Below are positions 712 through 15,090 of a stretch of DNA of 15,090 nt, in pieces (position 1 is the stretch's first letter; every line of letters begins with the position of its first letter). The notes beneath the pieces are model-generated. The model worked only from the letters and a program-made list of their open reading frames with translations. It ran no database searches and was not told the origin of the DNA. The translations under genes were made by a program, and so were the position numbers. The DNA is from a virus (taxonomy: Duplodnaviria; Heunggongvirae; Uroviricota; Caudoviricetes): positions 1-15,090 of IMG/VR virus record IMGVR_UViG_2778261465_000004. One strand, 5' to 3'.

Positions 712-714
712 AAG

Positions 715-1365
715 TTAGAGGTTCTTGATTACTTTGACTGCACGTCCTACGACTTCCACATCATCTACAGAACATTCAAATGAAGTGTCATCTTGGTTAA
801 CTACTATTTTGTTTCCAGGTATGCGCGCAATTTTGACGATGTTTTTCATACCGTCGATGTCTATGAGCCAAATTCCGTTACTAAGCTGTTTTGTTGATGT
901 ATCAACAATGTAATTGCCGTCGTTAGCTTTGACGTACAAACAATATTCGGCTTTTCCGGGTATCAAAGTCTGATCAAGGAAAACATCCCCCATCTCTTCG
1001 AGCGTTCCGTTCTCAATGGTTGCCTGCCTTACTGATGGGATAACTATCTTTGAAAGGGGGCGAACTATAGGTGAACTCTCGTTTTTGAACTTATTTTTTT
1101 CTTCTGTTTGAGGATACATTTCCCCTTGGCCCGTTGTCAGCCAAAGAAGAGAAATACCTGTTTCAAGGGCACATTGAATAACCCAGTCAGCAGGGAAGCT
1201 ATCACGTAACATCCTGTTTGCCATGGTGCTTTTTGATGCTTCGAGGTGTTCAACCAACGCTATCTGAGTGTTGAAACCATAGGCTGTCATCAGCCTTTTG
1301 ATGGTCTCTCTCCCTCCCGTATTTGCACCTGTACTAATCTTCAAGATGAACTCTCCATTTGACAA
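715..1365 (-). CDS. cI: CI-like lysogeny repressor (phage 186 CI type)
   Basis: 216-aa ORF. CALETGISLLWLTTGQGE and C-terminal WLIDIDG...IPGNK...FECSVDDVEVVGRAV blocks parallel 186 CI as recalled. The codon at 1363-1365 is TTG, so the true start may be TTG or an internal ATG (MTAYGF). Confidence 0.85.
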   Translation of the reverse strand: MSNGEFILKISTGANTGGRETIKRLMTAYGFNTQIALVEHLEASKSTMANRMLRDSFPADWVIQCALETGISLLWLTTGQGEMYPQTEEKNKFKNESSPIVRPLSKIVIPSVRQATIENGTLEEMGDVFLDQTLIPGKAEYCLYVKANDGNYIVDTSTKQLSNGIWLIDIDGMKNIVKIARIPGNKIVVNQDDTSFECSVDDVEVVGRAVKVIKNL

Positions 1366-1467
1366 TCCAATAACGAGATCGTATTTTTGTGTTTAACTTC
1401 TAATATGAGAGTTTAGAAGTTGGGGTTAAACATCATAAAACGAGCTTAAACCAAGAGATACTGCACT
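1366..1467. promoter_or_regulatory. Lysis-lysogeny switch region between cI and apl; contains a perfect 9-bp inverted repeat AACTTCTAA-N9-TTAGAAGTT (1395-1421), a candidate CI operator
   Basis: Inverted repeat read directly from the sequence; flanked by GTTTAAC (1391-1397) and GTTAAAC (1425-1431) motifs. In 186 the pR/pL promoters and CI operators occupy this position. Promoter hexamers not confidently assigned. Confidence 0.5.
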
Positions 1468-1710
1468 ATGAGCACAGATATTTCAATTCGTGTACCAAAA
1501 GAGATGGCTACGCCTGCTGAATTCGCTGAATGGGAAGGGATTTCCCGCGGGTCTGTTTACCAAAAAATTCACCATGGTCAACTCGCTAAGTACATGGTCA
1601 AGAAAGAAAAAAACAAAGGCCGCGTAAGCCTGCGTTATCTGATGTACAAAACTGATCAGGTCCGTGAATCCCTCGGTCATTCCAACTTCCGCGTCATTGT
1701 TGGTAAGTAA
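1468..1710 (+). CDS. apl: Apl/Cox-like excisionase / early repressor (small HTH protein)
   Basis: 80-aa ORF, first gene of the rightward early operon, directly opposite cI. Position and size match 186 apl / P2 cox. Sequence-level homology not verified. Confidence 0.6.
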   Translation: MSTDISIRVPKEMATPAEFAEWEGISRGSVYQKIHHGQLAKYMVKKEKNKGRVSLRYLMYKTDQVRESLGHSNFRVIVGK

Positions 1711-1742
1711 TTTCAATTATGGGAACTTTCTAAGGGAGCACC

Positions 1743-2252
1743 ATGTTTGATTACAAGATTTCCAAACATCCGCATTTTGATGAAGCCTGTAGAGCTTTTG
1801 CACTACGTCACAATATGGCGAAGCTAGCAGAACTCGCGGGAATGAACGTCCAGACGCTGCGTAACAAGCTGAACCCGGAACAACCGCATCAGCTCACTGC
1901 ACGAGATATCTGGCTACTTACCGATCTGACTGAAGATTCAACGCTGGTAGATGGTTTTCTGGCACAGATTCATTGTCTGCCATGTGTTCCGATTAATGAG
2001 GTGGCAAAAGAGAAACTACCGCATTACGTCATGAGTGCAACTGCAGAGATAGGGCGTGTCGCGGCTGGTGCGGTTTCTGGCGATGTAAAAACCAGTGCAG
2101 GCCGTCGTGATGCGATCAGCAGCATTAACTCTGTTACACGACTGATGGCGCTGGCTGCTGTTTCATTGCAGGCCCGTTTACAGGCTAATCCTGCGATGGC
2201 AAGTGCAGTTGATACCGTAACTGGTCTCGGTGCTTCATTCGGGTTGCTGTGA
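1743..2252 (+). CDS. cII: CII-like transcriptional activator (186 CII type)
   Basis: 169-aa ORF (same length as 186 CII) with AAGGGAG ribosome-binding site 4 nt upstream. Strings such as AGMNVQTLRNKLNPEQPHQ and LTEDSTLVDGFLAQIHCLPCVP match 186 CII as I recall it. Confidence 0.85.
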   Translation: MFDYKISKHPHFDEACRAFALRHNMAKLAELAGMNVQTLRNKLNPEQPHQLTARDIWLLTDLTEDSTLVDGFLAQIHCLPCVPINEVAKEKLPHYVMSATAEIGRVAAGAVSGDVKTSAGRRDAISSINSVTRLMALAAVSLQARLQANPAMASAVDTVTGLGASFGLL

Positions 2253-2259
2253 GGTGCTT

Positions 2260-2556
2260 ATGCTGACGAAAGAACCATCATTTGCATCGCTGCTGGTAAA
2301 GCAAAGCCCGGCAATGCACTACGGTCACGGCTGGATCATGGGTGAGGATGGAAAACGCTGGCATCCATGTCATTCACAAGACGAATTGCTGTCTGAATTG
2401 ACCACGAGGAAACAGAGAAAGTCAAAATGTATGCAGCGGAAGGTGAAGTGGTTTATCAGTTTCGTTACAGAGGGGAGAGTTATTCAGTACCTGAAGATGA
2501 TTTGCTCTGTTGTTATCCGTCGTTGTCGGGCGATGGCAGTTACTTTTTCACGCTAA
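2260..2556 (+). CDS. Hypothetical early protein (position of 186 fil); overlaps the next ORF in another frame
   Basis: ATG at 2260 just after the cII stop. The N-terminal ~56 aa look protein-like; the C-terminal part (Cys/Arg-rich) overlaps the 2427 ORF and may be read-through. Confidence 0.4.
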   Translation: MLTKEPSFASLLVKQSPAMHYGHGWIMGEDGKRWHPCHSQDELLSELTTRKQRKSKCMQRKVKWFISFVTEGRVIQYLKMICSVVIRRCRAMAVTFSR

Positions 2557-2651
2557 AGGATGGGACGTTTTTACGGGGAGAGCAGGTTAAAGAGACGATA
2601 CGAAAAAATGTATCTCCTCTTGAACGTTACCGTAATAACAAACAACGATAG
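2427..2651 (+). CDS. Hypothetical small early protein (position of 186 dhr)
   Basis: 74-aa ORF preceded by AGGAAACAGAGAAAG. Composition looks protein-like (MYAAEGEVVYQFRYRGESYSVPEDD...). Confidence 0.45.
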   Translation: MYAAEGEVVYQFRYRGESYSVPEDDLLCCYPSLSGDGSYFFTLKDGTFLRGEQVKETIRKNVSPLERYRNNKQR

Positions 2652-2673
2652 TTGCGTTTTGGGGATATGAATT

Positions 2674-3015
2674 ATGGCAATTAATTGCACTGCGGCGACT
2701 GTTCCATTAAGCCCCGGTGAACGCCTGAATGGACTTAATCACATTGCGGAGTTAAGGGCGAAAGTTTTTGGCCTGAATATTGAGTCAGAGCTTGAGCGGT
2801 TTATTAAAGATATGCGTGATTCACGGGATATTAATAGCGAACAAAATAAACGGGCACTGGCTGCCATATTCTTTATGGCAAAAATTCCAGCTGAACGTCA
2901 TAGCATCAGCATTAATGAGCTGACCACTGACGAAAAGCGGGAGTTGATTAAAGCAATGAATCATTTTCGTGCAGTGGTGAGCTTATTTCCCAGACGGCTA
3001 ACCATGCCGAATTAA
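2674..3015 (+). CDS. Hypothetical early protein
   Basis: 113-aa ORF with GGGGA ribosome-binding site 8 nt upstream; co-oriented in the early operon. Confidence 0.65.
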   Translation: MAINCTAATVPLSPGERLNGLNHIAELRAKVFGLNIESELERFIKDMRDSRDINSEQNKRALAAIFFMAKIPAERHSISINELTTDEKRELIKAMNHFRAVVSLFPRRLTMPN

Positions 3016-3082
3016 CCAACTAATGAAATTAATGGCGTAAACCCGCCAGGCATCCCTTTATCTAAATTCAGGAGAATTGATT

Positions 3083-3316
3083 ATGCGTAATATTGAAACC
3101 CTCACGACCAAAACCGGACCGGATGACGCAGGGCTTAATATTTTACTGACAGAGGCTCGTCTGGAAGAACGTCGAGCAAGGGCTGAAGCAATGGCAGCTC
3201 GCCTTGATAGTCTGGCGTGTCATATTACATCCCGCCAGCTAAACCACGTCGAAGCGGCAGAACTGCTGCGTGTGACTGCTGAAGCAATCCAGAACGAAGC
3301 GCAGGAGATCCACTAA
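3083..3316 (+). CDS. Hypothetical small helical protein
   Basis: AGGAGA ribosome-binding site at 3070-3075, ATG at 3083 (the track start at 3077 is TTG). Its stop overlaps the next start (TAATG at 3314-3318). Confidence 0.6.
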   Translation: MRNIETLTTKTGPDDAGLNILLTEARLEERRARAEAMAARLDSLACHITSRQLNHVEAAELLRVTAEAIQNEAQEIH

Positions 3317-3543
3317 TGGCTGATGCAATGGATCTCGTACAGCAGCGCGTTGAAGAAGAACGCCAGCGCCACATCCGTGCTGCCCGTGCCAAAACACCGG
3401 GCGTGTCTCGCGTGCTTTGCATTGAGTGTGAAGCGCCAATTCCGCCAGCACGCCGCCGCGCCATTCCGGGAGTGCAGCTTTGCATTACCTGTCAGGAAAT
3501 CGCAGAGCTGAAAGGTAAACATTACAACGGAGGTGCTGTATGA
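3316..3543 (+). CDS. TraR/DksA-family C4 zinc-finger protein (P2 Orf82-like)
   Basis: 75 aa with CIECEAP...CITCQE (Cys-x2-Cys ... Cys-x2-Cys) and basic RRRAIPG between them. Translationally coupled on both sides. Confidence 0.8.
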   Translation: MADAMDLVQQRVEEERQRHIRAARAKTPGVSRVLCIECEAPIPPARRRAIPGVQLCITCQEIAELKGKHYNGGAV

Positions 3544-4397
3544 GCACCATCCTGAAATGGGCGGGTAATAAAACCGCCATTATGTCCGAACTGAAAAAAC
3601 ACCTTCCTGCTGGCCCGCGACTGGTTGAACCTTTCGCGGGTTCTTGTGCTGTGATGATGGAGACGGATTACCCCAGCTATTTGGTTGCGGATATTAATCC
3701 TGATTTAATCAACCTCTATAAAAAGGTTGCCGCTGATTGTGAATCGTTTATATCTCGCGCCAGAGTTTTATTTGAGATCGCAAACAGGGAGGTGGCTTAT
3801 TACAACATAAGGCAGGAGTTTAATTACTCCACTGAAATTACTGATTTCATGAAAGCGGTATATTTCCTGTATCTCAATCGTCACGGTTACCGTGGTTTAT
3901 GTCGCTATAACAAGAGCGGGCATTTCAACATTCCCTACGGTAATTATAAAAATCCGTATTTCCCTGAAAAAGAAATTCGTGCATTTGCAGAAAAAGCCCA
4001 GCGGGCAACATTTATCTGCGCCAGCTTCGATGAAACGCTGGCAATGTTGCACGCGGGAGATGTGGTGTATTGCGATCCGCCGTATGACGGTACGTTTTCC
4101 GGCTATCACACTGATGGTTTCACTGAAGATGACCAGTATCACCTGGCATCCGTTCTTGAACATCGGTCATCAGAAGGACATCCAGTCATTGTTTCTAACA
4201 GTGACACATCCCTGATCCGTTCGCTGTATCGCAATTTTACTCACCACTATATCAAGGTAAAACGCAGCATCGGTGTGGCAGCTGGCGAGGGTAAATCAGC
4301 AACAGAAATCATTGCTGTTTCCGGGCCGTGCTGCTGGATGGGATTTGATTATTCGCGTGGCGTGGATAGTTCTGCCGTGTACGGAGTACGTGCATGA
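3540..4397 (+). CDS. dam: DNA adenine methyltransferase (Dam family, N6-adenine MTase)
   Basis: N-terminal KWAGNK and PFAGSCAV (AdoMet binding) plus catalytic DPPY motif (VYCDPPYDG). ATGA overlap with the upstream stop and with the A start. Confidence 0.9.
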
Positions 4398-6808
4398 CTC
4401 ATGCCGATATGAACAACTGCTGCGGCTTTAACGAGGCTGCCGCAGCATTCTCATGGAACAGCCCGAAAAAGGCCATTAACCCTTATCTGGACCCGGCGGA
4501 AGTTGCGCCGGTTTCTACGCTTTCAAACCTGATCACTCTGTACGCTGCCGATAACGAGCAGGAACAGTTGCGCCGCGAGGCACTGAGTGATCAGGTCTGG
4601 GAGCGTTATTTCTTTAATGAATCACGTGATCCTGTCCAGCGCGAAATGGAGCAGGATAAGCTCATTAGCCGGGCAAAGCTGGCGCATGAGCAGCAGCGTT
4701 TTAATTCAGACATGGTCATTCTGGCGGACGTCAACGCCCAGCCTTCCCATATCAGCAAGCCGCTGATGCAACGTATTGAATACTTCAGCAGCCTGGGCAG
4801 GCCAAAGGCTTATTCCCGCTATTTACGTGAGACGATTAAGCCATGTCTGGAACGACTGGAGCATGTACGCGACAGTCAGCTATCTGCATCTTTTCGCTTT
4901 ATGGCAAGCCATGAAGGGCTGGACGGCCTGCTGATCCTGCCTGAAATGAGTCAGGATCAGGTGAAACGCCTGTCCACCCTGGTAGCTGCGCATATGAGTA
5001 TGTGCCTTGATGCAGCTTGTGGTGATTTGTATGCCACCGATGACGTTAAGCCAGAAGAAATCCGCAAGACATGGGAAAAGGTGGCAGCGGAAACCCTGCG
5101 TCTGGATGTCATCCCACCTGCGTTTGAGCAACTCCGTCGGAAAAGAAACCGCCGTAAACCCGTGCCCTATGAACTCATTCCGGGTTCGCTGGCGCGTATG
5201 TTGTGCGCCGACTGGTGGTATCGGAAATTATGGAAGATGCGTTGCGAATGGCGGGAAGAGCAGTTGCGCGCTGTTTGCCTGGTCAGCAAAAAAGCATCTC
5301 CTTATGTCAGCTATGAAGCCGTGATGCATAAACGTGAGCAGCGCCGTAAGTCGCTGGAGTTTTTCCGTTCTCATGAACTGGTGAACGAAGACGGCGACAC
5401 GCTGGACATGGAGGATGTGGTAAACGCCAGCAGCAGCAACCCTGCGCATCGCCGCAATGAGATGATGGCCTGTGTTAAAGGTCTGGAGCTTATCGCGGAA
5501 ATGCGCGGTGACTGCGCCGTTTTCTACACTATCACCTGTCCGTCGCGTTTCCATTCCACGCTAAATAACGGCAGACCAAACCCGACCTGGACAAACGCGA
5601 CGGTAAGACAAAGCAGCGATTATCTGGTCGGCATGTTTGCTGCATTTCGTAAGGCGATGCACAAAGCCGGGTTGCGCTGGTATGGCGTGCGGGTGGCTGA
5701 GCCGCATCATGATGGCACAGTTCACTGGCACCTGTTGTGTTTCATGCGCAAAAAAGACCGCCGTGCCATCACTGCATTACTGCGTAAGTTTGCCATCCGT
5801 GAAGACCGCGAGGAGCTGGGCAATAACACTGGGCCGCGCTTTAAGTCTGAGTTGATTAACCCGCGCAAAGGAACGCCGACAAGCTACATCGCGAAATATA
5901 TCAGTAAGAACATTGACGGTCGTGGTCTGGCTGGCGAGATCAGCAAGGAAACGGGTAAATCTCTGCGTGATAACGCTGAATACGTGAATGCCTGGGCGTC
6001 TTTGCATCGTGTTCAGCAATTCCGCTTCTTTGGCATTCCGGGGCGTCAGGCTTACCGTGAACTGCGATTGTTGGCTGGTCAGGCGGCAAGGCAACAGGGG
6101 GACAAAAATGCAGGTGCGCCGGTACTGGATAACCCGCGTCTTGATGCCATTCTGGCTGCTGCTGATGCTGGTTGTTTTGCCACCTACATCATGAAGCAGG
6201 GCGGCGTACTGGTTCCCCGTAAATATCACCTCATCAGAACCGCTTATGAAATCAACGAAGAGCCGACCGCCTATGGCGATCACGGCATTCGTATTTATGG
6301 CATCTGGTCACCCATTGCAGAGGGCAAGATCTGCACTCATGCAGTGAAGTGGAAAATGGTTCGTAAAGCCGTTGACGTTCAGGAGGCGGCAGCCGACCAG
6401 GGCGCTTGCGCCCCTTGGACTCGTGGCAATAACTGTCCCCTTGCTGAAAATTTGAACCAACAAGGGAAAGACAAATCAGCTGATGGGGATACCAGGACGG
6501 ACATTACCCGCATGGATGACAAGGAGTTGCACGATTACCTGCACAGTATGAGCAAAAAAGAGCGCCGGGAACTGGCTGCAAGGTTACGCCTGGTGAAACC
6601 GAAACGGCGTAAAGACTACAAACAGCGAATTACAGACCATCAGCGACAGCAGCTCGTCTATGAACTGAAGTCCAGAGGATTTGATGGCAGCGAGAAAGAG
6701 GTCGATTTACTCCTTCGCGGCGGCAGTATTCCGTCAGGAGCAGGCCTGCGTATCTTCTATCGGAACCAGCGTTTGCAGGAAGATGATAAGTGGCGGAACC
6801 TGTATTAA
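4394..6808 (+). CDS. A: Rolling-circle replication initiator, P2 gpA family (HUH endonuclease)
   Basis: 804 aa. HUH-type motif VHWHLL (codons at 5723-5731) and paired tyrosines YIAKYISK (5885-5899), as in P2 A / phiX174 A-type initiators. Position after the early operon matches. Confidence 0.9.
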
Positions 6809-6900
6809 TTACGCGGGTTAACAATTCGTGCTCTTAATAATACCAGGCATTTCAGGCTGATGAACGTAAAAAAACGTTTTACATCAGTAAGATTATTATA

Positions 6901-6920
6901 TACTGTAAATATAAACAGTG
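6901..6920. promoter_or_regulatory. LexA box (SOS operator) TACTGTAAATATAAACAGTG upstream of the 6961 operon
   Basis: Perfect CTGT-N8-ACAG core (6903-6918) with an AT-rich spacer. A partial second site lies immediately downstream (ACAG at 6930-6933; left half GTGG). Candidate -35 TTTACA at 6878-6883. Confidence 0.7.
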
Positions 6921-6960
6921 GTTATATATACAGTATTACTTTGGTGTCATAGGAGGAAAG

Positions 6961-7149
6961 ATGCAGGACTATTTTTTGGAGTCTTTGAAGCTCCAGCGCA
7001 TTGATTTTTTTCTTAAGCTTGTAGCGGCTAGTGAGTGTAGTGATGAAGAGAAGGGGCTGGCTCTGCAGTGGGTTTCTGAATTGACTGATGAACTCATGGC
7101 AAAAATCAGAACCCACGAATACAACCGCTCAATGGATGTCATCAGCTGA
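6961..7149 (+). CDS. SOS-regulated small protein, possibly the antirepressor (Tum-like) module
   Basis: 62-aa ORF with AGGAGG ribosome-binding site 5 nt upstream, immediately downstream of the LexA box. Function inferred from position only. Confidence 0.6.
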   Translation: MQDYFLESLKLQRIDFFLKLVAASECSDEEKGLALQWVSELTDELMAKIRTHEYNRSMDVIS

Positions 7150-7159
7150 GGTGACCTTT

Positions 7160-7393
7160 ATGCGCATTGAAATAATGATCGATAAAGAGCAGAAGATTAG
7201 CCAGTCTACCCTGGACGCCCTTGAATCCGAGCTTTACCGCAATCTGCGCCCCCTGTATCCCAAAACGGTAATTCGCATCCGCAAAGGTAGCTCTAACGGT
7301 GTGGAACTGACCGGACTGCAACTGGACGAAGAAAGAAAACAAGTGATGAAGATTATGCAGAAGGTGTGGGAAGACGACAGCTGGCTGCATTAA
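7160..7393 (+). CDS. DinI-like protein
   Basis: 78 aa starting MRIEIMIDK and ending QKVWEDDSWLH, colinear with E. coli DinI (MRIEVTIAK...ETWESADDWF) as recalled. GAGGTGA ribosome-binding site 6 nt upstream. The longer track ORF from 7088 is rejected. Confidence 0.8.
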   Translation: MRIEIMIDKEQKISQSTLDALESELYRNLRPLYPKTVIRIRKGSSNGVELTGLQLDEERKQVMKIMQKVWEDDSWLH

Positions 7394-7552
7394 GAAAAGT
7401 TGCTGGCGTCTGAACTTGGTTCTGGCGTCAGCAAGGTTGAACAACGAGTACAGTGAGGCGTTAGGTGTGGCGTTTATTTGATGAGTGAACGCCCGTTCTG
7501 CGACAGGTTCGGAGATTAAGGTTGAAACTACGGGCAAAATACCATCTTTTTC

Positions 7553-7978
7553 CTACTTAATTGAGTCCAGTAACAAGTTACAGTTACTCTCATTGTAGAG
7601 AGAACGAGCAATTAGTGTTACCTGCTTTCCATTCATTCCCGGCTTATCCCATAACACAGCTTCTTGCGACGCCACAAATTCAGCATAATCAATTATGCGT
7701 TGTTCGTGATCTGGTTCCTCATAGCCAAAGTATGAGAGCGCATCGTTGTAAGCGTGGTAAGCTGCTTTCTGTAATATCTTGATATCGGCTGTAGGTACTT
7801 GCTCCGTGTAGCTAGGATCTAATTGTGTGCTACTGCCATAGAATGCACATGAAAGGTAAGATATTGATTTCTGTTGAGCTTTAGTTCCTTTCTCATAGTT
7901 TTTAGCTGTTACCGCCTGAACTGGGACGCTAACAAAGCTTGCAACCAGAATTAAAATTAATACGTAAAAGCTTTTCAT
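7553..7978 (-). CDS. Secreted/periplasmic protein of unknown function (cargo gene)
   Basis: 141 aa with classical signal peptide MKSFYVLILILVASFVSVPVQA (likely cleaved after VQA; no lipobox Cys). GAGGT ribosome-binding site 5 nt upstream. AT-rich relative to the phage backbone. Confidence 0.75.
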   Translation of the reverse strand: MKSFYVLILILVASFVSVPVQAVTAKNYEKGTKAQQKSISYLSCAFYGSSTQLDPSYTEQVPTADIKILQKAAYHAYNDALSYFGYEEPDHEQRIIDYAEFVASQEAVLWDKPGMNGKQVTLIARSLYNESNCNLLLDSIK

Positions 7979-8196
7979 TTTGACCTCAGCCGAAACGTTA
8001 GAGAGACTATCGAAATTTGTAAAACCCGTGGCGATTCAGTTTGAGATCCTCCCCCTTACATGATTTTTAATCAAATATATACTTTTGTAAGCATACCTGT
8101 TAACCGAATTATTTATTTTTAGAGATCTTCCGACATACTGATTATGCCCGCTGAGGAGTTCACCTTGCGTAAGGTCCGATTCGCTTTACTCGTCTG

Positions 8197-8297
8197 TGCA
8201 TGTCTATGCTGCATGAGATTGCATGATCGTTTGAGGATCGTTTTTGCTAAGGCCCGCCAGAACTGGCGGGCTTTTGCGTAGATCATGCACCTGCATG
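8197..8297. repeat. Cluster of five TGCATG/CATGCA motifs flanking a hairpin, just upstream of the cos-like motif
   Basis: TGCATG at 8197, 8210, 8220 and 8292; inverted copy CATGCA at 8284. Spacing of 10-13 bp between the first three. Confidence 0.4.
8252..8278 (+). terminator. Intrinsic terminator-like hairpin GCCCGCCAG-AA-CTGGCGGGC followed by TTTTGCG
   Basis: Perfect GC-rich stem followed by a T-run on the plus strand; sits in a GC-rich islet inside AT-rich cargo. Confidence 0.6.
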
Positions 8298-8320
8298 AAA
8301 ACCATTACATAAAGCGGGCA

Positions 8321-8339
8321 GGCGTGGCGGGGATACGAG
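8321..8339. other. Putative cos (cohesive end) remnant or variant
   Basis: GGCGTGGCGGGGATACGAG: the first 13 nt match the 19-nt cohesive end I recall for phage 186 (GGCGTGGCGGGGAAAGCAT; P2 GGCGAGGCGGGGAAAGCAC), the last 6 diverge. Location between the A/tum region and the portal fragment is where cos sits in P2/186 prophages. Confidence 0.35.
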
Positions 8340-8406
8340 CGCGCGCTTATTACTTTGATAGTACTCGGGTTATAATATGGATGACTATCTATCTCGGAGA
8401 ATGTAC

Positions 8407-10059
8407 ATGTCATTAGACTATATTAAAGAACAGTTGTCAGACTTTATTTCATCTGCAGAACCTGAGGTAATGGCTATTCAGGGTGAGTGGGGGATTGGGA
8501 AAACCTATACTTGGAATGCTTTCTTAAAGGAAAATAAAAATAAGATTGCATTTAATAGATATAGTTACGTCTCTCTTTTTGGTGTTAATTCATTGGACGC
8601 ATTAAAATACTCCATCTTTGAAAATACAATTACGAAAGATTTCATTGGAAACAAACCTAATTTAAAAACAGCAACACAAAATGCAAAGGGGCTTCTTGAA
8701 TCCTGCACTAGAAAGACCGCTCGTGTGTTAAAAGATACACCTTTTTTGAAAAATTTCACTACGACACTTGAGTCAATGTCATTTATGTCAATTACTAATG
8801 TTATTGTAGTCATAGATGACTTAGAAAGACGTGGTAAAAATTTAGAAGTGAAAGATGTCTTAGGGTTGGTTTCTTTATTGAAAGAACAAAAAAATTGTAA
8901 GGTGGTTCTTTTACTTAATAACGGGACAAGTGGTATGGATGACTACTCCACTTATAAAGAAAAGGTTATTGATAGAGAGATTACCTATAATCCTACTCCA
9001 GAAGAATGTGCAGTTATAGCATATAAAAATAATTCTGATGTTCATAAATTATTAAGCAAATACTCCATTTCCCTGGGTATTAAGAATATTAGGATACTGA
9101 AAAAAATAGAGCGGTTTTTGCTAGCCTTGTTACCTGGCATTAACGTTAATTTTGAAAAAATTGCAAATGAAGTCGCACACTCCTTAACTTTGTATTGTTG
9201 GAGTCATTACGCATTTACTCCAGATGGAGATGTACCATCATTGGAGTATATTAGAAATATGAGAAATATCTATATGCGTGATGAAAAAGAGGATGGAAAA
9301 GAAAAAAAATGGCTTAATACTTTGCTTATATATGATTATAAAAAAACAAACGAACTTGATGAAGTCCTTATAGACATGGTAAGGCATGGATATATTGATA
9401 TGAACAATTTCCAAAGGCAAGTAAGTCTAAGGAATGATGAACTTATCCGTGATAGTAAGCGAGGTTCACTGTTTGAAGCATGGAAGCTTTTCTATAATTC
9501 ATTTGAAGATAACCGAAATCAGGTTATTGATAATCTATATCAAGCGGTGGTTGGTGGGATAGAGTATGTAACTCCAAGTGACTTGGATAGTGTTGTCGGA
9601 CTGTATAGAGATTTAGGTGAAAATATTAAAGCAAGTGAATTAATAAGTAAATTTATTAATTACGGCAATGATGCTCTTAAGGAATATGTTCAATCTATTT
9701 ACATGAATGTTCATCCTATAAAAGATGCTGAGTTAAAGTCAAAAATCCAAGATTATTCTACTACTTTAAATCTGGATGGTTCTATAAAGGATGTTCTAAT
9801 AAAATTATCAAGTCAGAATGGTTGGTCTGATAGGCACGAGGAAATATTGGATGCTGCCTCAGAGGATGACTACTATGATTTATTTAAAAAAGTCATTCTT
9901 GATGGTGGTGATTCAATAATAGCTACTGCTCTTAAGTTTGGTGGGTATAGCAATGGTTCAGAAAGAATGAAACGCATCGGAGAAAAAGCGAGAAATGCTT
10001 TGATAAGAATTGGAAATGAGTCGAGCATTAATAAAATACGTGTTAGACGGTATTTGTAA
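8407..10059 (+). CDS. KAP-family P-loop NTPase, soluble (no predicted transmembrane insert); cargo gene, candidate anti-phage defence protein
   Basis: Walker A GEWGIGKT (GxWGxGKT KAP signature), Walker B VIVVIDDLERR (hhhhDDLxR), then VVLLLNN. Start chosen at the ATG 6 nt after GGAGA (8407); in-frame ATGs at 8377 and 8401 are alternatives. No long hydrophobic segment seen. Strongly AT-rich. Confidence 0.8.
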   Translation: MSLDYIKEQLSDFISSAEPEVMAIQGEWGIGKTYTWNAFLKENKNKIAFNRYSYVSLFGVNSLDALKYSIFENTITKDFIGNKPNLKTATQNAKGLLESCTRKTARVLKDTPFLKNFTTTLESMSFMSITNVIVVIDDLERRGKNLEVKDVLGLVSLLKEQKNCKVVLLLNNGTSGMDDYSTYKEKVIDREITYNPTPEECAVIAYKNNSDVHKLLSKYSISLGIKNIRILKKIERFLLALLPGINVNFEKIANEVAHSLTLYCWSHYAFTPDGDVPSLEYIRNMRNIYMRDEKEDGKEKKWLNTLLIYDYKKTNELDEVLIDMVRHGYIDMNNFQRQVSLRNDELIRDSKRGSLFEAWKLFYNSFEDNRNQVIDNLYQAVVGGIEYVTPSDLDSVVGLYRDLGENIKASELISKFINYGNDALKEYVQSIYMNVHPIKDAELKSKIQDYSTTLNLDGSIKDVLIKLSSQNGWSDRHEEILDAASEDDYYDLFKKVILDGGDSIIATALKFGGYSNGSERMKRIGEKARNALIRIGNESSINKIRVRRYL

Positions 10060-10062
10060 TTT

Positions 10063-10083
10063 GGGGGGATTTTCATCCCCCAC
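10063..10083. terminator. Stem-loop GGGGGAT-TTTC-ATCCCCC between convergent KAP gene and portal fragment
   Basis: 7-bp perfect stem read directly; no strong U-tract on either strand, so its terminator function is uncertain. Confidence 0.4.
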
Positions 10084-10092
10084 ACATTTTAT

Positions 10093-10491
10093 CTAATTCA
10101 ATGAATAATCTTTGAAGGCTATTATTTTTTTCTTTAGCCAAATATTAATTTCTACAAGTCTTTTTTGTAAAGGAGTTAACTCATTTCGCACAAAAACGCA
10201 ACTGGCTTTTTCTATATCCCCAAACCCCCCAACATTGTTTGGCATTATCCCCATCATCTGCGGCGGCACACGATGCGCCGCCATCATGTCATCCCGACTT
10301 ACGTTCTTGATGTTAAGAAATTCATCCTTCGCCGCGACTTCTGACAATGGGATGATCTGAAGCCCGTCTTTTTTGCCGTTAGGCGAGTACATAAACAGGT
10401 TGCGGAAGTTGCCTGGACCTTTGGCACTTTTCATCGCGTTGCGGAGGTTGTTCACATCCTCCTGATTCTGCGCGGCGTCGGTCATGTACAT
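10093..10491 (-). pseudogene. Q: 3' fragment of portal gene (P2 Q-like); N-terminal two-thirds deleted
   Basis: Leftward-reading ORF whose stop faces the cos-like site, as Q does in P2. Assigned as portal from orientation and position; no start context and no upstream late genes. Last ~30 codons are AT-rich, suggesting the cargo junction lies inside the 3' end. Confidence 0.5.
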
Positions 10492-10503
10492 GATGAAGCC
10501 TGC

Positions 10504-11532
10504 ATGGCGGTACTGCGCGGTGGACTGGCCGCCGCAGGCACGGTGCTGCGAGTACTGGCATCTGGTCCACTGGCGATGCTGCGCGTTGCCCTGTATGCCA
10601 TATCTGGTCTGTTAGGTGCTCTGCTCAGTCCGATAGGTCTTGTGGTTACTGCACTGGCGGGCGTGGCGCTGGTTGTCTGGAAATACTGGCAACCCATCAC
10701 CGCATTTCTCGGTGGCGTGGTGGAAGGATTCAAAGCGGCGGCAGGTCCCATCAGTGCAGCGTTCGAACCGCTTAAGCCCGTGTTCCAGTGGATTGGCGAC
10801 AAAGTGCAGGCGCTGTGGGGCTGGTTTACTGATCTGCTGACGCCCGTTAAGTCGACCTCTGCCGAACTGCAGAGCGCAGCGGCAATGGGGCGGCGATTCG
10901 GGGAGGCACTGGCGGAAGGGCTGAATATGGTCATGCATCCGCTGGACTCCCTGAAATCCGGCGTTTCCTGGTTGCTGGAGAAGCTCGGCATTGTCAGTAA
11001 AGAGGCCGCAAAGGCAAAACTGCCGGAAAGCGTGACGCGTCAGCAACCTGCGACGGTGAATGCAGACGGTAAAGTGATGATGCCATCGGGTGGTTTTCCA
11101 TCATGGGGATATGGCTTTGCGGGGATGTATGACAGCGGCGGGTATATCCCGCGCGGGCAGTTTGGCATCGTCGGTGAAAACGGGCCGGAAATTGTTAACG
11201 GCCCGGCAAATGTGACCAGCCGGAGAAATACAGCTGCACTGGCTGCCGTTGTTGCCGGAATGATGGGCGTTGCTGCCGCGCCAGCAGAGCTTCCACCGTT
11301 GCACCCTTTGGCACTTCCCGCGAAAGGTGGAGAAGCAATTGTGAGTCGCGCAGCCACTGTGCCGCTCGTTCAACGGATTGAGGCACCGACGCAGATCATC
11401 ATTCAGACGCAGCCAGGACAAAGTGCGCAGGATATTGCGCGGGAGGTGGCACGCCAGCTTGATGAACGTGAACGCAGGCTGAAGGCAAAAGCCAGGAGTA
11501 ACTACAGCGATCAGGGGGGATACGACGCATGA
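10504..11532 (+). pseudogene. T: 3' fragment of tail tape-measure gene (P2 T-like); N-terminal part deleted
   Basis: 342-aa frame ending 4 nt into gpU. Ala/Gly/Leu-rich hydrophobic segments typical of tape-measure C-termini. Frame is open upstream to 10345 with no ribosome-binding site; P2 T is far longer. Confidence 0.65.
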
Positions 11533-12014
11533 TGATGGTGCTGGGATTGTACGTGTTTATGCTGCGCACCGTTCCGTATCAGGAACTGCAGTATCAACGC
11601 AGCTGGCGACATGCGGCAAACAGTCGGGTAAACCGACGTCCGTCCACGCAGTTTCTGGGACCGGAAAACGACATGCTGACGCTTTCCGGTGTTCTTATGC
11701 CGGAAATAACAGGCGGCAGGCTGTCGTTGCTGGCACTGGAGCAGATGGCAGAACAGGGGAAAGCATGGCCCCTGATTGAAGGCAGCGGCACGATTTACGG
11801 CATGTATGTGATTGAGGGACTGAATCAGACTAAAACGGAGTTTTTCCGCGACGGTATGCCGCGCCGGATTGAGTTCACCCTGTCGCTCAAACGAGTGGAT
11901 GAATCCCTGTCCGATATGTTCGGTGATCTCAGTGCGCAACTGAATAATCTGCAGGACACGGCAACGTCTGCCTTAAGCGATATCAGTAAAACGGTGGGAG
12001 GGCTGCTGTCGTGA
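11529..12014 (+). CDS. U: Tail protein gpU
   Basis: 161 aa; MMMVLGLYVFMLRT..., LSGVLMPEITGG, AWPLIEGSGTIYGMYVIEG and FTLSLKRVDESL match P2 gpU as recalled. ATGA overlap with the T stop. Confidence 0.85.
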   Translation: MMMVLGLYVFMLRTVPYQELQYQRSWRHAANSRVNRRPSTQFLGPENDMLTLSGVLMPEITGGRLSLLALEQMAEQGKAWPLIEGSGTIYGMYVIEGLNQTKTEFFRDGMPRRIEFTLSLKRVDESLSDMFGDLSAQLNNLQDTATSALSDISKTVGGLLS

Positions 12015-13111
12015 ATTTCAGCTCTGAACTGCTTAACAAAGGCAACAAAACTCCCGCATTCAGCATCAGTATTGAGGGCAGGGATATCACCACTGTGCTG
12101 GATAACCGCCTGATGAGTTTGACGCTGACGGATAACCGGGGCTTTGAAGCGGACCAGCTTGATCTGGAGCTGGATGACGCTGACGGAAAAATCGTGCTGC
12201 CGCGCCGTGGTGCGGTTATTACGCTGGCGCTGGGCTGGAAGGGGCAGCCGCTTTTCCCGAAAGGGGCATTCACAGTGGACGAGATTGAACACACTGGCGC
12301 ACCGGACCGCCTGACTATCCGGGCGCGAAGTGCTGATTTTCGGGAAACGCTGAATACCCGCCGTGAAAAATCGTGGCATAAGACCACCGTCGGGGAAGTG
12401 GTGAAGGAAATAGCCGCGCGGCACAAGCTGAAGATGGCACTGGGTAAAGACCTGTCGGATAAGCCCGTGGAGCATATAGACCAGACTAATGAGAGTGACG
12501 GCAGTTTTCTGATGCGGCTGGCGCGACAGTACGGTGCCATCGCGTCGGTGAAAAATGGCAATCTGTTATTCATCCGGCAGGGGCAGGGCAAAAGCGCCAC
12601 TGGTAAACCTCTGCCAGTGATCACTATCACACGCAAGGACGGCGACAGTCACCGATTTACCCTGGCAGATCGCGGAGCCTACACGGGCGTAATTGCCAGC
12701 TGGTTGCATACCCGCGAACCTGCGAAGAAAGAAAGCACCACGGTGAAGCGTAAGCGCAGAACTAAGAAGCAGAAGAAAGAGCCAGAAGCGAAGCAGGGCG
12801 ATTACCTGGTGGGTACGGATGAAAACGTGCTGGTACTTAATCGCACTTATGCCAACCGGAGCAATGCCGAACGAGCGGCGAAAATGCAGTGGGAACGCCT
12901 GCAACGCGGCGTTGCGTCATTTTCGCTACAACTGGCAGAAGGGCGGGCAGATCTCTACACGGAAATGCCTGTGAAGGTCAGTGGTTTTAAACAGCCGATA
13001 GATGATGCGGAATGGACCATTACGACTCTGACACATACCGTCAGCCCGAATAACGGTTTTACAACCAGTATTGAACTCGAAGTGAAGATTGATGATCTTG
13101 AAATGGAATAA
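12011..13111 (+). CDS. D: Tail protein / late control protein gpD
   Basis: 366 aa, GTG start overlapping the U stop (GTGA), in the P2 gpD position between U and ogr. Confidence 0.85.
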   Translation: MNFSSELLNKGNKTPAFSISIEGRDITTVLDNRLMSLTLTDNRGFEADQLDLELDDADGKIVLPRRGAVITLALGWKGQPLFPKGAFTVDEIEHTGAPDRLTIRARSADFRETLNTRREKSWHKTTVGEVVKEIAARHKLKMALGKDLSDKPVEHIDQTNESDGSFLMRLARQYGAIASVKNGNLLFIRQGQGKSATGKPLPVITITRKDGDSHRFTLADRGAYTGVIASWLHTREPAKKESTTVKRKRRTKKQKKEPEAKQGDYLVGTDENVLVLNRTYANRSNAERAAKMQWERLQRGVASFSLQLAEGRADLYTEMPVKVSGFKQPIDDAEWTITTLTHTVSPNNGFTTSIELEVKIDDLEME

Positions 13112-13179: not shown

Positions 13180-13398
13180 ATGATGAATTGTCCAAAGTGT
13201 GGTCATGCGGCACACACAAGGAGCAGTTTTCAAGTAACTGAAAGCACCAAAGAGCGTTACTGCCAGTGCCAAAATATTAACTGCGGGAGCACTTTTGTTA
13301 CTCATGAAACAGTGGTCCGGTTTATTGTGACACCCGCACTGATTGCTACTGCTCCTCCACATCCATTGCCAGGTGGTCAGGGGCATATGAATTTTTGA
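13180..13398 (+). CDS. ogr: Ogr/Delta-type zinc-finger late-gene transcriptional activator
   Basis: 72 aa from ATG 13180: MMNCPKCGHAAHTRSS...TKERYCQCQNINCGSTF...PHPLPGGQ parallels P2 Ogr (MFHCPLCQHAAHARTS...KERYHQCQNVNCSATF...PHPLPSGQ) as recalled. Confidence 0.85.
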   Translation: MMNCPKCGHAAHTRSSFQVTESTKERYCQCQNINCGSTFVTHETVVRFIVTPALIATAPPHPLPGGQGHMNF

Positions 13399-13403
13399 GA
13401 AAG

Positions 13404-13430
13404 AGAACCTGCTACGGCAGGTTTTTATTC
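13404..13430. terminator. Intrinsic terminator AACCTGC-TACG-GCAGGTT + TTTTTATT shared by convergent ogr (+) and the BRCT gene (-)
   Basis: Stem 13406-13412 / 13417-13423 followed by a T-run on the plus strand; the minus-strand gene's stop (13425-13427) lies inside the T-tract. Confidence 0.65.
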
Positions 13431-13907
13431 ATCTGGGATCTCACCCGTTTCAAGAAAATGTATAAAGCCAGGCTCATCTATGATGATTGTGCCTTTCATC
13501 CTGGCTGCCGATACTTTTGATGGGCCTGCATTGTAACCGCAACAGAGCATCTGAAGGCTTTGGGTTATAGAGGTTCTTACCGTTAATCCTTGTTCATTCG
13601 CCTTATCAACCAATCTTTCTTTATCTGCTTTCTTAAATCCGGTGAAACACACATCGAATGTATTTTTTTTCGGACCAGACTGCTTAGTGAGATGTGAGTA
13701 GCTTTCGGGGAGGAATGACGCGCATTCCTGAATGGCTTGTTCTGGTGAATCGTACTGTTTAAGAATGCGGTCTTTTCGGAAGGTTTTTATTCGATCGGTG
13801 TTCTTACAAATGCCCTGTATATGATTTTCGCTATAACTGATGCTCTGTATAGAGTGAACAGCGATACGACCATTTGCATTGATGTAAACAAAGTGAAGTT
13901 CTTCCAT
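13425..13907 (-). CDS. Small BRCT-domain protein with WYL-like N-terminal domain (cargo gene next to attR)
   Basis: C-terminal ~80 aa (FTGFKKADKERLVDKANEQGLTVRTS...GYNAGPSKVSAARMKGTIIIDEPGFIHFL) align by eye to the BRCT domain of NAD-dependent DNA ligase (LTGSLS...RDDAKARL...GAKVAGSVSKKTD...[24 protein letters not shown]). N-terminal ...HIQGICKNTDRIKTFRKDRIL resembles the C-terminal strand region of WYL domains (tentative). AGAGG ribosome-binding site 7 nt upstream. Confidence 0.75.
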   Translation of the reverse strand: MEELHFVYINANGRIAVHSIQSISYSENHIQGICKNTDRIKTFRKDRILKQYDSPEQAIQECASFLPESYSHLTKQSGPKKNTFDVCFTGFKKADKERLVDKANEQGLTVRTSITQSLQMLCCGYNAGPSKVSAARMKGTIIIDEPGFIHFLETGEIPDE

Positions 13908-13933: not shown

Positions 13934-13972
13934 ATGGCGACAGGCAAGATGGACGCAAAAGTCTGTCGCCAT
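13934..13972. repeat. 10-bp perfect inverted repeat ATGGCGACAG-N19-CTGTCGCCAT with embedded AAGATGG direct repeat
   Basis: Arms at 13934-13943 and 13963-13972; AAGATGG at 13931-13937 and 13947-13953. Lies between the BRCT gene start and the ssrA 3' end. Confidence 0.5.
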
Positions 13973-13994
13973 TTTGCCGCCACTACCAAAGAAA

Positions 13995-14025
13995 AAGGGG
14001 CTACGCTTTCACGTAACCCCTTGAT
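13995..14025 (-). terminator. ssrA intrinsic terminator
   Basis: On the minus strand just after the tmRNA CCA end: AAGGGGTTACG-TGAAAG-CGTAGCCCCTT followed by TTTTCTTT. Confidence 0.6.
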
Positions 14026-14030
14026 TTATT

Positions 14031-14393
14031 TGGTGGAGCTGGCGGGAGTTGAACCCGCGTCCGAAATTCCTACATCCTCGGTACTACATGCTTAGTCAGT
14101 CTTTACATTCGCTTGCCAGCTGCGGACGGACACGCCACTAACAAACTAGCCTGATTAAGTTTTAACGCTTCAACCCCAGGCAGGGCTTCCACGCGATCTC
14201 TTTTGGGTTTGACCTCTCTTGATCCCCGTCCTAAGAGCGGAGGCTAGGGAGAGAGGGCTCTAAGCAGGTTATTAAGCTGCTAAAGCGTAGTTTTCGTCGT
14301 TTGCGACTATTTTTTGCGGCTTTTTACGAGGCCAACCGCCCCTCGGCATGCACCTTGGGTTTCGCAAATCCCGTCGAATCCAGAATCAGCCCC
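14031..14393 (-). ncRNA. ssrA: tmRNA (transfer-messenger RNA, SsrA), 363 nt
   Basis: Reverse complement reads GGGGCTGATTCTGGATTCGACGGGATTTGCGAAACCCAAGGTGCATGCCGAGGGGCGG...CGGGTTCAACTCCCGCCAGCTCCACCA, matching enterobacterial tmRNA across the tRNA-like ends. Confidence 0.95.
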
Positions 14394-14607
14394 AATGTGT
14401 AACGATAAGTATACCAGATTTATGAGCGCCATGACCAGCCTCAATGGCGTTATCGTTAAAGATTTAGCACCCATGTAGCCTGATTTTTATTCGATTAAGC
14501 AATGGGATGGCAACATTTTCGTCGGATGTGATAGCCAATAAGATGTTCATTCGCGCCGCCGGAGAGGGAGGCGCGGTGAGGAACTGGTCAATAATTGGAG
14601 TGCAGGT

Positions 14608-15090
14608 TTAACGGTGGGCGTTTTTCATGATACGCGCTTTATCCACCTGCCATTCGCGCTCTTTGATATCTGAACGTTTATCGTGCTGTTTCTTACCTTT
14701 GGCGACGCCGATTTTCACTTTGCACCAGGCATTTTTCCAGTACAGGGAGAGCGCCACTACGGTATAGCCTTCTCGATTGACGCGACCGTACAATGAGTCC
14801 AGTTCGCGCTGGTTGAGAAGTAACTTGCGGGTACGGGTAGGATCGCACACCACATGCGTGGAGGCCACTGCCATTGGCGTGATGTTTGCGCCAAACAGGA
14901 ACGCTTCTCCGTCACGCAGAAGGACATAGCTGTCGCTGATATTGGCTTTTCCTGCGCGCAGGGATTTAACTTCCCAGCCTTGCAGGGCAAGTCCCGCTTC
15001 GAACTCTTCTTCGATAAAGTATTCGTGACGGGCGCGCTTGTTAAGCGCGATGGTCGCTGAACCAGGTTTATGTGCTTTTTTCTTCGTCAT
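14608..15090 (-). CDS. smpB: SsrA-binding protein SmpB
   Basis: Complete 160-aa ORF ([53 protein letters not shown]...) matching E. coli SmpB as recalled; immediately upstream of ssrA on the same strand. Confidence 0.95.

Follow-up and report, generated by a model that had tools for sequence, protein, structure and literature searches.

The window, that is, the whole stretch of 15,090 nucleotides that was analysed, carries prophage genes in the order int-CI-apl-CII-fil-...-dam-A-DinI-cargo-cos-KAP NTPase-portal ... T-U-D-ogr-attR, an order that is also found in two intact relatives bearing the same cargo, the EcPNK004 prophage at ssrA (NZ_CP071439.1; L010) and the O25b:H4 prophage at rcdA (NZ_CP015085.1; L001). 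The DNA of both relatives is 97-99.9% identical to that of the window on either side of the junction described below, and the EcPNK004 prophage has the same ssrA att core. Both, however, have a full late region of 18.7-19.8 kb and an intact integrase gene, whereas the window is without the late region and has an IS3 in int. The att core at the right end of the prophage (14030-14075) overlaps the 3' end of the tmRNA gene ssrA (14031-14393) and is, over its 46 bp, 100% identical to the partial ssrA copy at attL of the EcPNK004 prophage. This is a comparison of attR with the attL of that relative, the attL of the remnant itself lying beyond the IS3 and the end of the contig.

The first 34 nucleotides of the window (1-34) are a terminal inverted repeat of IS3 that interrupts the integrase gene, with the IS3/int boundary at 34/35. 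In 3,580 of 5,426 E. coli genomes, with a median of 3 copies per genome, they match at 100% the termini of IS3 elements with an annotated transposase, and all of the prophage alignments begin at window positions 34-38; past the window start, the source contig has only another 43 bp. The truncated integrase gene (35-711, minus strand) retains codons 1 to about 226 of 338. In BLASTP its product is 94% identical to residues 1-229 of a 338-residue integrase, after which the match stops, and its Pfam Int_N domain is complete, with only 46 residues of Phage_integrase. Missing, then, is most of the C-terminal half, the part in which integrases of this family have their catalytic residues. The first-pass annotation of this DNA had counted int, the switch, the replication genes and the cargo as retained; this holds for the switch, the replication genes and the cargo, which are intact, but not for int, which the IS3 has cut.

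A putative cos site (GGCGTGGCGGGGATACGAG, 8321-8339, plus strand) has 15 of 19 matches to the cos of 186, and its flanks can be aligned with the right and left ends of that phage when these are joined. A search with the P2 cos 19-mer, allowing up to 3 mismatches, had given no match, and the 186-type cos, at 4 mismatches, was found later. Between this site and the portal stop codon lies a cargo gene encoding a KAP-family P-loop NTPase (8377-10059, plus strand, with the start placed at 8407 by the gene caller), which matches Pfam KAP_NTPase, PHROG 4740 and the PADLOC candidate PDC-S49 (E=2e-25), and which adjoins a full-length portal gene in both of the intact relatives. It is a candidate anti-phage gene, the PADLOC match being a hint at the level of the family. 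The cargo and portal genes converge on a GC-rich hairpin (10062-10082), at which a terminator-like site is predicted; P2 and 186 have annotated terminators, tQ and tW, at the corresponding place, immediately after the stop codon of the portal gene, and the hairpin is likely a terminator. No promoter-like site was found between the hairpin and the tape-measure ORF.

Beyond the hairpin two gene fragments meet. The first of them (10093-10508, minus strand) is the 3' part of a portal gene homologous to P2 Q and 186 W, of whose 342 codons it keeps 137, together with the stop codon and 2 nt. The ORF that it contains (10093-10491) matches positions 209-339 of the 344 in the profile of PHROG 68, 'portal protein' (E=1e-63), gives a match to Pfam Phage_portal that is below threshold, and encodes a protein 100% identical to the C-terminus of the full-length portal, of 342 residues, of an intact prophage. 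At the DNA level, window positions 9800-10508 are 99.86% identical to positions 20001-20710 of the O25b:H4 prophage, whose portal CDS is located at 20295-21323, and the portal-side homology ends at the same position when the EcPNK004 prophage is used instead. The second fragment (10505-11532, plus strand) is the last third of a tape-measure gene, the homologue of P2 T and 186 G, and comprises codons 685-1025 of 1025. Its ORF (10504-11532) matches PHROG 5690 at positions 556-907 of 907 (E=4e-131), as well as several further tape-measure PHROGs, and the DNA of the fragment is 99.5% identical to O25b:H4 positions 39447-40474, the end of a CDS of 3078 bp (37397-40474), and 97.7% identical to the EcPNK004 prophage. 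Both the PHROG matches and the alignment to intact prophages bear out the first-pass reading of this place as a deletion junction that fuses the 3' fragments of a portal gene and a tape-measure gene: the minus-strand ORF is portal-derived, and the plus-strand ORF, which from its ATG at 10504 has 342 of 1025 codons, is a fragment and not a full-length gene.

Alignment to intact prophages, which had been proposed as a way of mapping the breakpoints and any microhomology, rendered both exactly. Portal-derived DNA reaches 10508 and tape-measure-derived DNA begins at 10505, the two sharing an exact microhomology of 4 bp, TGGC (10505-10508, plus strand), that is present in both parental sequences. 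The fragments directly abut, with zero spacer, so that the spacer of about 15 bp initially described between them was an error; the apparent gap of 12 bp between the two ORFs is due to where each ORF happens to have an ATG. Indeed, the ATG of the tape-measure ORF (10504-10506, plus strand) was made by the junction, as can be read from the sequence and the O25b:H4 coordinates. Its A is portal-side DNA and its TG belongs to the microhomology, and it stands in place of a tape-measure CTG (Leu684), with the reading frame kept. An extended imperfect homology is found at 10493-10508 (plus strand; portal side ATGAAGCCTGCATGGC versus tape-measure side ATGAATCCTC-TGGC), where the BLAST alignments of both parental segments overlap and where, with mismatches and a gap admitted, 12 bases match over 16 bp. 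The junction sequence is wholly explained by the two parental segments, without filler DNA, and the breakpoints are identical in three-way alignments against the intact prophages of O25b:H4 and EcPNK004.

Window positions 35-10508 and 10505-13109 align to the EcPNK004 prophage in order and orientation, with the ssrA/smpB flank (13963-15090) coming next, and colinearity across the junction holds for the O25b:H4 prophage as well. The DNA missing from the window amounts to 18,740 bp with respect to O25b:H4 and to 19,837 bp with respect to EcPNK004, in agreement with an earlier estimate of roughly 15-20 kb. Of the portal gene the 5' 60% was lost, and of the tape-measure gene two thirds; entirely gone are the two terminase genes, the genes for scaffold, capsid and head completion, the lysis cassette, the genes for baseplate, tail fibres, sheath and tube, and E/E'. 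The window contains no gene for terminase, scaffold, capsid, holin, lysin, baseplate, fibre, sheath or tube, and all of these lie inside the interval deleted relative to the two intact prophages. It had been stated in the first-pass annotation that terminase, capsid, lysis and most tail genes were absent and that the prophage could not make virions, and on both points it was right, the virion and lysis genes being gone. All four late promoters were lost with the deletion as well, those of P2 and 186 being located upstream of P/O, V and FI, all within the deleted interval. The other retained genes have lengths equal to those in intact prophages.

We are confident that the junction is the scar left when about 19 kb was lost, in a single illegitimate deletion, from a 186/P2-like (Peduoviridae) prophage integrated at the ssrA 3' end of an E. 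coli strain. The scar points to a microhomology-mediated deletion of the RecA-independent type, that is, to short-homology illegitimate recombination in the prophage state, by which the antisense strand of the portal gene, after about codon 205 from the 5' end of the gene, would have been joined to tape-measure codon 684 at TGGC. For random deletions in the O25b:H4 prophage, the probability of a microhomology of at least 4 bp is 1.8%, with a mean of 0.68 bp. A microhomology of 4 bp would also fit end joining at a double-strand break. For RecA-dependent recombination at least 20 bp of identity is commonly taken to be necessary, and homologous recombination of this kind was ruled out by an exact shared identity of 4 bp only. 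Two other candidates were also rejected: an IS-mediated deletion, because the junction is without IS sequence and the IS3 is 10 kb off, in int, and a deletion by the tail-fibre invertase, because the breakpoints are in the portal and tape-measure genes and not at crossover sites. In the comparison of the junction with the parental segments, no IS, recombinase site or long repeat was detected at the breakpoints. The IS3 in int is a second, independent hit, and it blocks excision too.

The exact fusion ORF was found in one assembly only, the draft NCBI assembly GCA_002485495.1. Megablast searches of 5,426 complete E. coli genomes with two junction-spanning queries found the junction in none of them, no match covering both sides; the first query also spanned the cargo, and the narrower second one (10300-10710) excludes a coverage artefact. 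Likewise, an exact 29-mer across the junction had no match in the GTDB species-representative genomes or in the JGI metagenome contigs. The deletion looks like a private and probably recent event. What the two fragments are, where they break off, the microhomology, how large the deletion is and which genes it took, the cut in int and the scarcity of the junction are all shown by the sequence comparisons, whereas the mechanism, the recency and the transcriptional silence of the fragments are inferred. The source is a draft assembly whose contig ends in a repeat, IS3, and a chimeric join in contig NNVC01000037.1, between two parts of one intact prophage or between two prophages, has to be considered. 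The exact identity of 4 bp at the junction (12 matching bases in the imperfect stretch of 16 bp) is, however, shorter than any assembler k-mer, and a graph mis-join is therefore not expected. Moreover, the two sides have the order and orientation of a simple deletion, and junctions of this kind also occur in genomes that are finished and complete, among them another portal-to-tape-measure fusion in strain H2. An assembly artefact is, on these grounds, very improbable.

The last 27 or so codons of the portal gene and its stop codon (10093-10176, minus strand) are AT-rich, with a GC content of 0.24 versus 0.50 at 10177-10508, as had already been noticed for the last 30 or so codons, and are part of an exchangeable cargo module. 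The DNA homology to a prophage with different cargo (L002) breaks at about 10175, the portal alignments of nine other-cargo prophages begin 40-100 nt inside the gene, and the C-terminal residues of the portal vary with the type of cargo and are still homologous. P2 and 186 lack cargo in the interval from cos to the portal gene, and the 3' end of their portal genes is of normal GC. The identical AT-rich end is present in the intact prophages of O25b:H4 and EcPNK004 and is therefore unconnected with the deletion. A non-homologous replacement of the portal 3' end was ruled out, since this end can be aligned with P2 Q and 186 W as far as the final few residues, in which all of the portals compared differ in length. 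It had been suggested that the insertion of cargo rebuilt the portal 3' end. The end does belong to the cargo module, but it encodes a C-terminus of full length, with homology to P2 Q and 186 W. With the boundary of the cos-proximal cargo hotspot inside the portal gene, each cassette brings its own AT-rich last 25 or so portal codons.

Retained on the plus strand beyond the tape-measure fragment are an intact gpU-type tail gene (11529-12014; Pfam Phage_P2_GpU, E=3e-44) of the length found in intact prophages, an intact gpD-type tail/late control D gene (12011-13111; Pfam Phage_GPD and PHROG 52), and a gene for an ogr/B-type late activator (13180-13398; Pfam Ogr_Delta, E=1.5e-20), annotated in relatives as a 219-bp ogr. 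The late promoters for this activator to act on in cis are all deleted, including the pF-type promoter of the tape-measure gene and the late promoter of the gpU-type gene, and the portal 3' fragment is a pseudogene whose late promoter has been deleted too. Because these promoters are gone, both fragments and the intact U and D genes would be promoterless relics, probably silent in transcription, and the scar itself would be without function. Read-through from the KAP-NTPase gene could transcribe T'-U-D.

The features retained could also be those of a helper-dependent 'mini-phage', replicated and packaged in a satellite-like manner by a co-resident or incoming P2-like helper. The cos-like site at 8321-8339 is kept, the A gene, with its internal origin, as well as CI, Apl, CII and ogr are intact, and the remnant extends for about 14 kb from int to attR, which is near satellite size. 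However, excision is impossible with int cut by IS3, every ORF is of ordinary P2/186 content, with no satellite-specific gene of the sid, psu, delta, epsilon or alpha primase type among them, and the junction, present in one assembly only, shows no sign of horizontal spread. We consider an element of this kind hardly credible.

At least 11 other E. coli genomes have independent and differing late-region deletions in prophages of the same 186/P2-like family at ssrA, the complete genomes with such a deleted prophage being those of F1005, MS20649, 1409, Z1323CEC0012, 98-3133, WS4437A-1, H2, E1433, NCTC9038, 300709 and KL53. Every junction in these genomes is distinct, the cargo genes differ, and int is intact in most. 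For 11 junctions the two BLAST alignments meet cleanly, and there they overlap by 0 to 7 bp, with a mean of about 3.5 bp versus a null mean of 0.68. The complete genome of strain H2 (L013) contains another fusion of a portal 3' end to a tape-measure 3' end, in which 396 nt of portal and 432 nt of tape-measure sequence remain, versus 416 and 1028 nt in the window. Three independent left breakpoints fall within 72 bp, a possible portal breakpoint cluster whose post-hoc probability, a back-of-envelope estimate from a biased sample, is roughly 0.03-0.05.

The first-pass annotation took the prophage for a domesticated element, that is, a deletion derivative kept by selection as a fixed immunity/defence island (CI immunity, the KAP NTPase and other cargo) and no longer able to kill its host. 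Domestication is reportedly the subject of a paper by Bobay et al. from 2014. CI, the Apl/CII switch, dam, the A replication gene, DinI, the candidate defence gene (PDC-S49), cos and ogr are all intact, as such a reading would have it, and in 12 of the 12 deleted ssrA prophages examined the late genes are lost and the early region and cargo are intact, although this sample is biased, two-thirds of the query being early region and hits having been joined only where the extra DNA that separated the pieces came to less than 8 kb. Intactness can, however, mean that there has been no time to decay, the flanks being 97-99.9% identical to intact prophages, and intact gene lengths are equally expected from a recent event. 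Survivorship alone, moreover, predicts deletions in the middle, i.e. in the late region, because loss of CI with replication or lysis genes kept would be lethal and a deletion into ssrA would be costly. The junction is private to one assembly, with no sign of vertical maintenance, and conservation of the same remnant by descent across strains was not found among the 5,426 E. coli genomes, the GTDB representatives or the JGI metagenomes. With the junction in 0 of 5,426 genomes, the fusion ORF in a single assembly and no further decay or fixation visible, the analysis rendered no positive evidence for domestication, which we regard as unlikely for this prophage. For the family, a wider idea would be that P2/186-like prophages at ssrA may repeatedly become immobile immunity/defence islands, with selection favouring independent late-region microhomology deletions because these would take away the potential for lethal lysis and leave CI immunity and the cos-proximal defence cargo in place; the scar in the window would then be a fresh instance. 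This idea is a tentative one, and we are doubtful about it.

A cryptic P2 remnant of E. coli K-12, made up of ogrK and a fragment of gpD, was reportedly described by Barreiro and Haggard-Ljungquist in J Bacteriol in 1992. That remnant is, like the one in the window, a P2-family prophage shrunk by deletion in which the attR-proximal D/ogr end is left, but it is reported to measure a few hundred bp, to have no early region and to lie at another att site, whereas the element in the window keeps its early region whole, and its cargo as well. Fels-2 and SopEPhi, P2-like phages of Salmonella integrated in ssrA (PMC3448106), likewise use the 3' end of this gene for attachment. These are intact, functional phages of another host, and the likeness noted here is that of the attachment site. 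Defective P2-like elements with conserved defence genes (bioRxiv 10.64898/2026.02.27.708500) and a gpA-cos-gpQ defence hotspot (Rousset et al. 2022, PMC9122126) have been described. Like those elements, the one in the window is defective and P2-like, with hotspot cargo near-identical to that of intact phages, and its cargo, as in the hotspot, is cos-proximal, between gpA and gpQ. The two are population surveys, whose accessible parts do not describe the junction, breakpoints or microhomology of the window.

The junction is thus a real but ordinary example of prophage decay in one sequenced strain. As regards annotation, the ORFs at 10093-10491 and 10504-11532 are to be treated as pseudogene fragments and the ATG at 10504 as an artefact of the junction, and the prophage is to be scored as defective and non-excisable. 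A temperate phage disarmed by one short-homology deletion of about 19 kb and by an IS3 in int is a well-resolved case that has small weight alone. Together, the many independent late-region deletions at ssrA constitute a natural series on the selective retention of defence and immunity modules.

The window takes in the right-hand side of an ssrA locus of E. coli that holds a 186/P2-like prophage, in which portal and tape-measure fragments form a deletion scar at 10093-11532. The leftward ORF at 10093-10491 matched PHROG 68 (portal; E=1e-63; profile positions 209-339/344) and the rightward ORF at 10504-11532 matched PHROG 5690 (E=4e-131; positions 556-907/907) and also several tape-measure PHROGs; such strong matches, far above chance, to only part of each profile show that both ORFs are 3' fragments. 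At the protein level, the portal fragment is 100% identical to the C-terminal part of a portal of 342 aa (full length), and its homology with P2 Q and 186 W is lost only in the last few residues, where portal lengths differ. When the window was aligned to the intact prophage that E. coli O25b:H4 carries at rcdA (L001), positions 9800-10508 corresponded to L001 20001-20710 (99.86% identity) and positions ~10505-11600 to L001 39447-40542 (99.5% identity), and exactly the same end points and the same TGGC microhomology were obtained with the intact prophage of EcPNK004 (L010), which lies at ssrA and carries the same KAP-NTPase cargo. The PHROG matches and alignments thus bear out the deletion junction proposed in the first-pass annotation, but not the ca. 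15 bp placed there between the fragments: portal-side identity extends through 10508 and tape-measure-side identity starts at 10505, so that there is no spacer, and the coordinates have been corrected. The junction falls within the 4-bp microhomology TGGC, inside an imperfect match (ATGAAGCCTGCATGGC vs ATGAATCCTC-TGGC). When 200,000 random deletions were simulated in L001, microhomology averaged 0.68 bp, and 4 bp was reached in only 1.8%. The scar is an instance of a well-known kind, the defective prophage made by illegitimate deletion.

Measured against L001 the missing DNA amounts to 18,740 bp, and against L010, where one more cargo gene stands between S and V, to 19,837 bp. As had been anticipated, terminase, capsid, lysis and most tail genes all lie within it. 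The portal gene has lost its 5' 613 nt and the tape-measure gene its first 683 codons; between them the deletion took both terminase subunits, the genes for scaffold, capsid and head completion, X, holin, lysozyme and lysA/B/C, R, S, V, W, J, I, H and G, the invertible fibre segment with its invertase, the sheath and tube genes, and E/E'. Judging by how P2 and 186 are annotated, the interval also takes in all the late promoters, which precede P/O, V and FI. The junction created an ATG (10504-10506) present in neither parent, its A being portal-side DNA and its TG microhomology, which opens the 342-codon tape-measure-fragment ORF and replaces Leu684 (CTG) in frame. Upstream of it on the + strand, a terminator-like hairpin (10062-10082) lies 3' of the KAP-NTPase gene, and no promoter-like site was found between this hairpin and the fragment. 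On the - strand, antisense tape-measure DNA continues the portal frame for 38 codons, none of them a start, so that the earliest start available is a Met within the portal sequence. Both fragments are probably silent pseudogenes, and U and D, which follow the scar and are intact, would be orphaned.

A cos-like site at 8321-8339 (GGCGTGGCGGGGATACGAG, with 186-like flanks) places the KAP-family NTPase gene (8377-10059) between cos and the portal stop codon, an interval of only ~170 bp in P2 and 186. The last 84 nt of the portal gene (10093-10176) have a GC content of 0.24, against 0.50 in the rest of the fragment and 0.33 in the adjoining cargo, whereas in P2 and 186, which lack such cargo, the value is normal (0.52-0.54). 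DNA homology to a deleted ssrA prophage with different cargo (L002) ends at about 10175; the portal genes of nine prophages with other cargo become homologous to that of L001 only 40-100 nt inside the gene, and their last 84 nt have a GC of 0.29-0.40. AT-rich last ~25 portal codons are also found at L002 15443-15526 and at the portal 3' ends of three further deleted prophages (L012, L015 and L016). The portal C-terminal ~22 residues vary with cargo type while their protein scaffold is conserved. The boundary of the cos-proximal cargo hotspot is thus inside the portal ORF, and the module inserted there supplies a portal 3' end of its own. The earlier suggestion that the cargo rebuilt this AT-rich end therefore holds in modified form; the feature is, however, unrelated to the deletion, being a property of the intact, presumably viable phages L001 and L010. 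Upstream of differing cos-proximal cargo, the 141-aa protein encoded at 7553-7978 (-) is conserved in several prophages (WP_000834899.1; L002, L010, L016); it has a signal-peptide-like N-terminus and belongs to PHROG 7437 (function unknown). To the right of the scar, gpU, gpD and ogr are followed by a gene for a 160-aa BRCT-domain protein (13425-13907, -; PHROG 2561; weak PADLOC PDC-S48 match), and then by attR, ssrA (14031-14393, -) and smpB, the last gene of the window. The ogr-attR position holds a reverse-transcriptase-domain gene in L010 and in strain H2 and a different gene in L003, another deleted prophage, so that it looks like a further variable cargo slot.

At the left end, positions 1-34 are an IS3 terminal repeat, which 3,580 genomes match at 100% in their annotated IS3 copies. 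The integrase ORF (35-711, -) can be aligned with a 338-aa homologue up to about residue 226-229 and no further, the IS3 end interrupting it at about codon 226; contrary to what had been supposed, int is therefore not retained. Since the draft contig ends 43 bp past the window start, the 3' portion of int and the prophage's attL lie out of view. The prophage has thus been disabled twice independently, by the late-region deletion and by IS3 in int. Further right come CI (715-1365, -), an apl/cox-type gene, CII, fil, several small early genes, dam (3540-4397), the A replication gene (4394-6808), a 62-aa gene, DinI and the 141-aa gene. Neither a 1.2-kb query nor a narrower 411-bp one avoiding variable cargo gave any match spanning the junction in 5,426 complete E. 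coli genomes, and a 29-mer across it found nothing in JGI metagenome contigs or in 185,579 species-representative genomes. One contig alone, NNVC01000037.1 (GCA_002485495.1), from which the window evidently derives, carries the exact 342-aa fusion ORF, and it is likewise the only one with the exact 236-aa truncated integrase. By these results the scar is private and probably recent. An assembly chimera is unlikely to have produced it, since the identity common to both sides is far below any assembler k-mer and scars of the same kind are present in finished genomes.

Such scars were found among ssrA prophages giving short joined matches to the whole window: 11 complete genomes carry different deletions, with at least 15 independent internal junctions among them besides the present one. 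Strain H2 has a second portal'::tape-measure' fusion (L013 10486-11309). The others are portal'::sheath' (Z1323CEC0012), portal'::fibre (98-3133), terminase'::tape-measure' (F1005), terminase'::tube' (WS4437A-1), terminase'::small-terminase' plus V'::ogr' (1409), DinI::E' (MS20649), scaffold'::tube/E region with its right breakpoint close to the tube-gene 3' end (E1433), scaffold'::E' plus a tape-measure' deletion extending right up to attR (300709, L016), scaffold'::D' (KL53) and three small deletions (NCTC9038). BLAST overlaps were 0-7 bp (mean about 3.5) at the 11 junctions with cleanly meeting alignments; most of the at least 15 junctions show overlaps of 2-7 bp. Three independent left breakpoints (H2, the present window and Z1323CEC0012) lie within 72 bp of the portal gene, at L001 20688, 20710 and 20759 (window ~10486-10557), with a post-hoc probability of about 0.03-0.05, a rough estimate from a biased sample. 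On the attL side of the ssrA locus, two strains carry a gene annotated as 'anti-phage dCTP deaminase' (L002 3241-4974; L015 242-1975), with ypjA on one side of it and the prophage integrase on the other.

The remnant had been regarded as a domesticated element, and its otherwise intact genes, of the same lengths as in intact prophages, the match of the KAP NTPase to the PADLOC defence candidate PDC-S49, and the retention of early region and cargo in all deleted ssrA prophages sampled would fit this. However, the flanks match intact phages at 97-99.9% identity and the junction was found a single time, so that intactness would be expected of a recent event in any case; the sample is skewed toward such retention by the query and joining rule; and survivorship favours middle deletions because CI loss would be lethal and ssrA loss costly. 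Domestication is therefore possible but unsupported; defective P2-like elements with conserved defence genes are described in a 2026 preprint (bioRxiv 10.64898/2026.02.27.708500), which leaves the same question undecided. It is also conceivable that the remnant, which retains cos, A, the switch and ogr, is a helper-dependent mini-phage, although int is broken, there is no satellite gene in it and no sign of spread. The variety of deletions in the 11 genomes, together with their short overlaps, shows that decay by short-homology deletion is recurrent in the 186/P2-like prophage family at ssrA, and the present scar is one more case of it.
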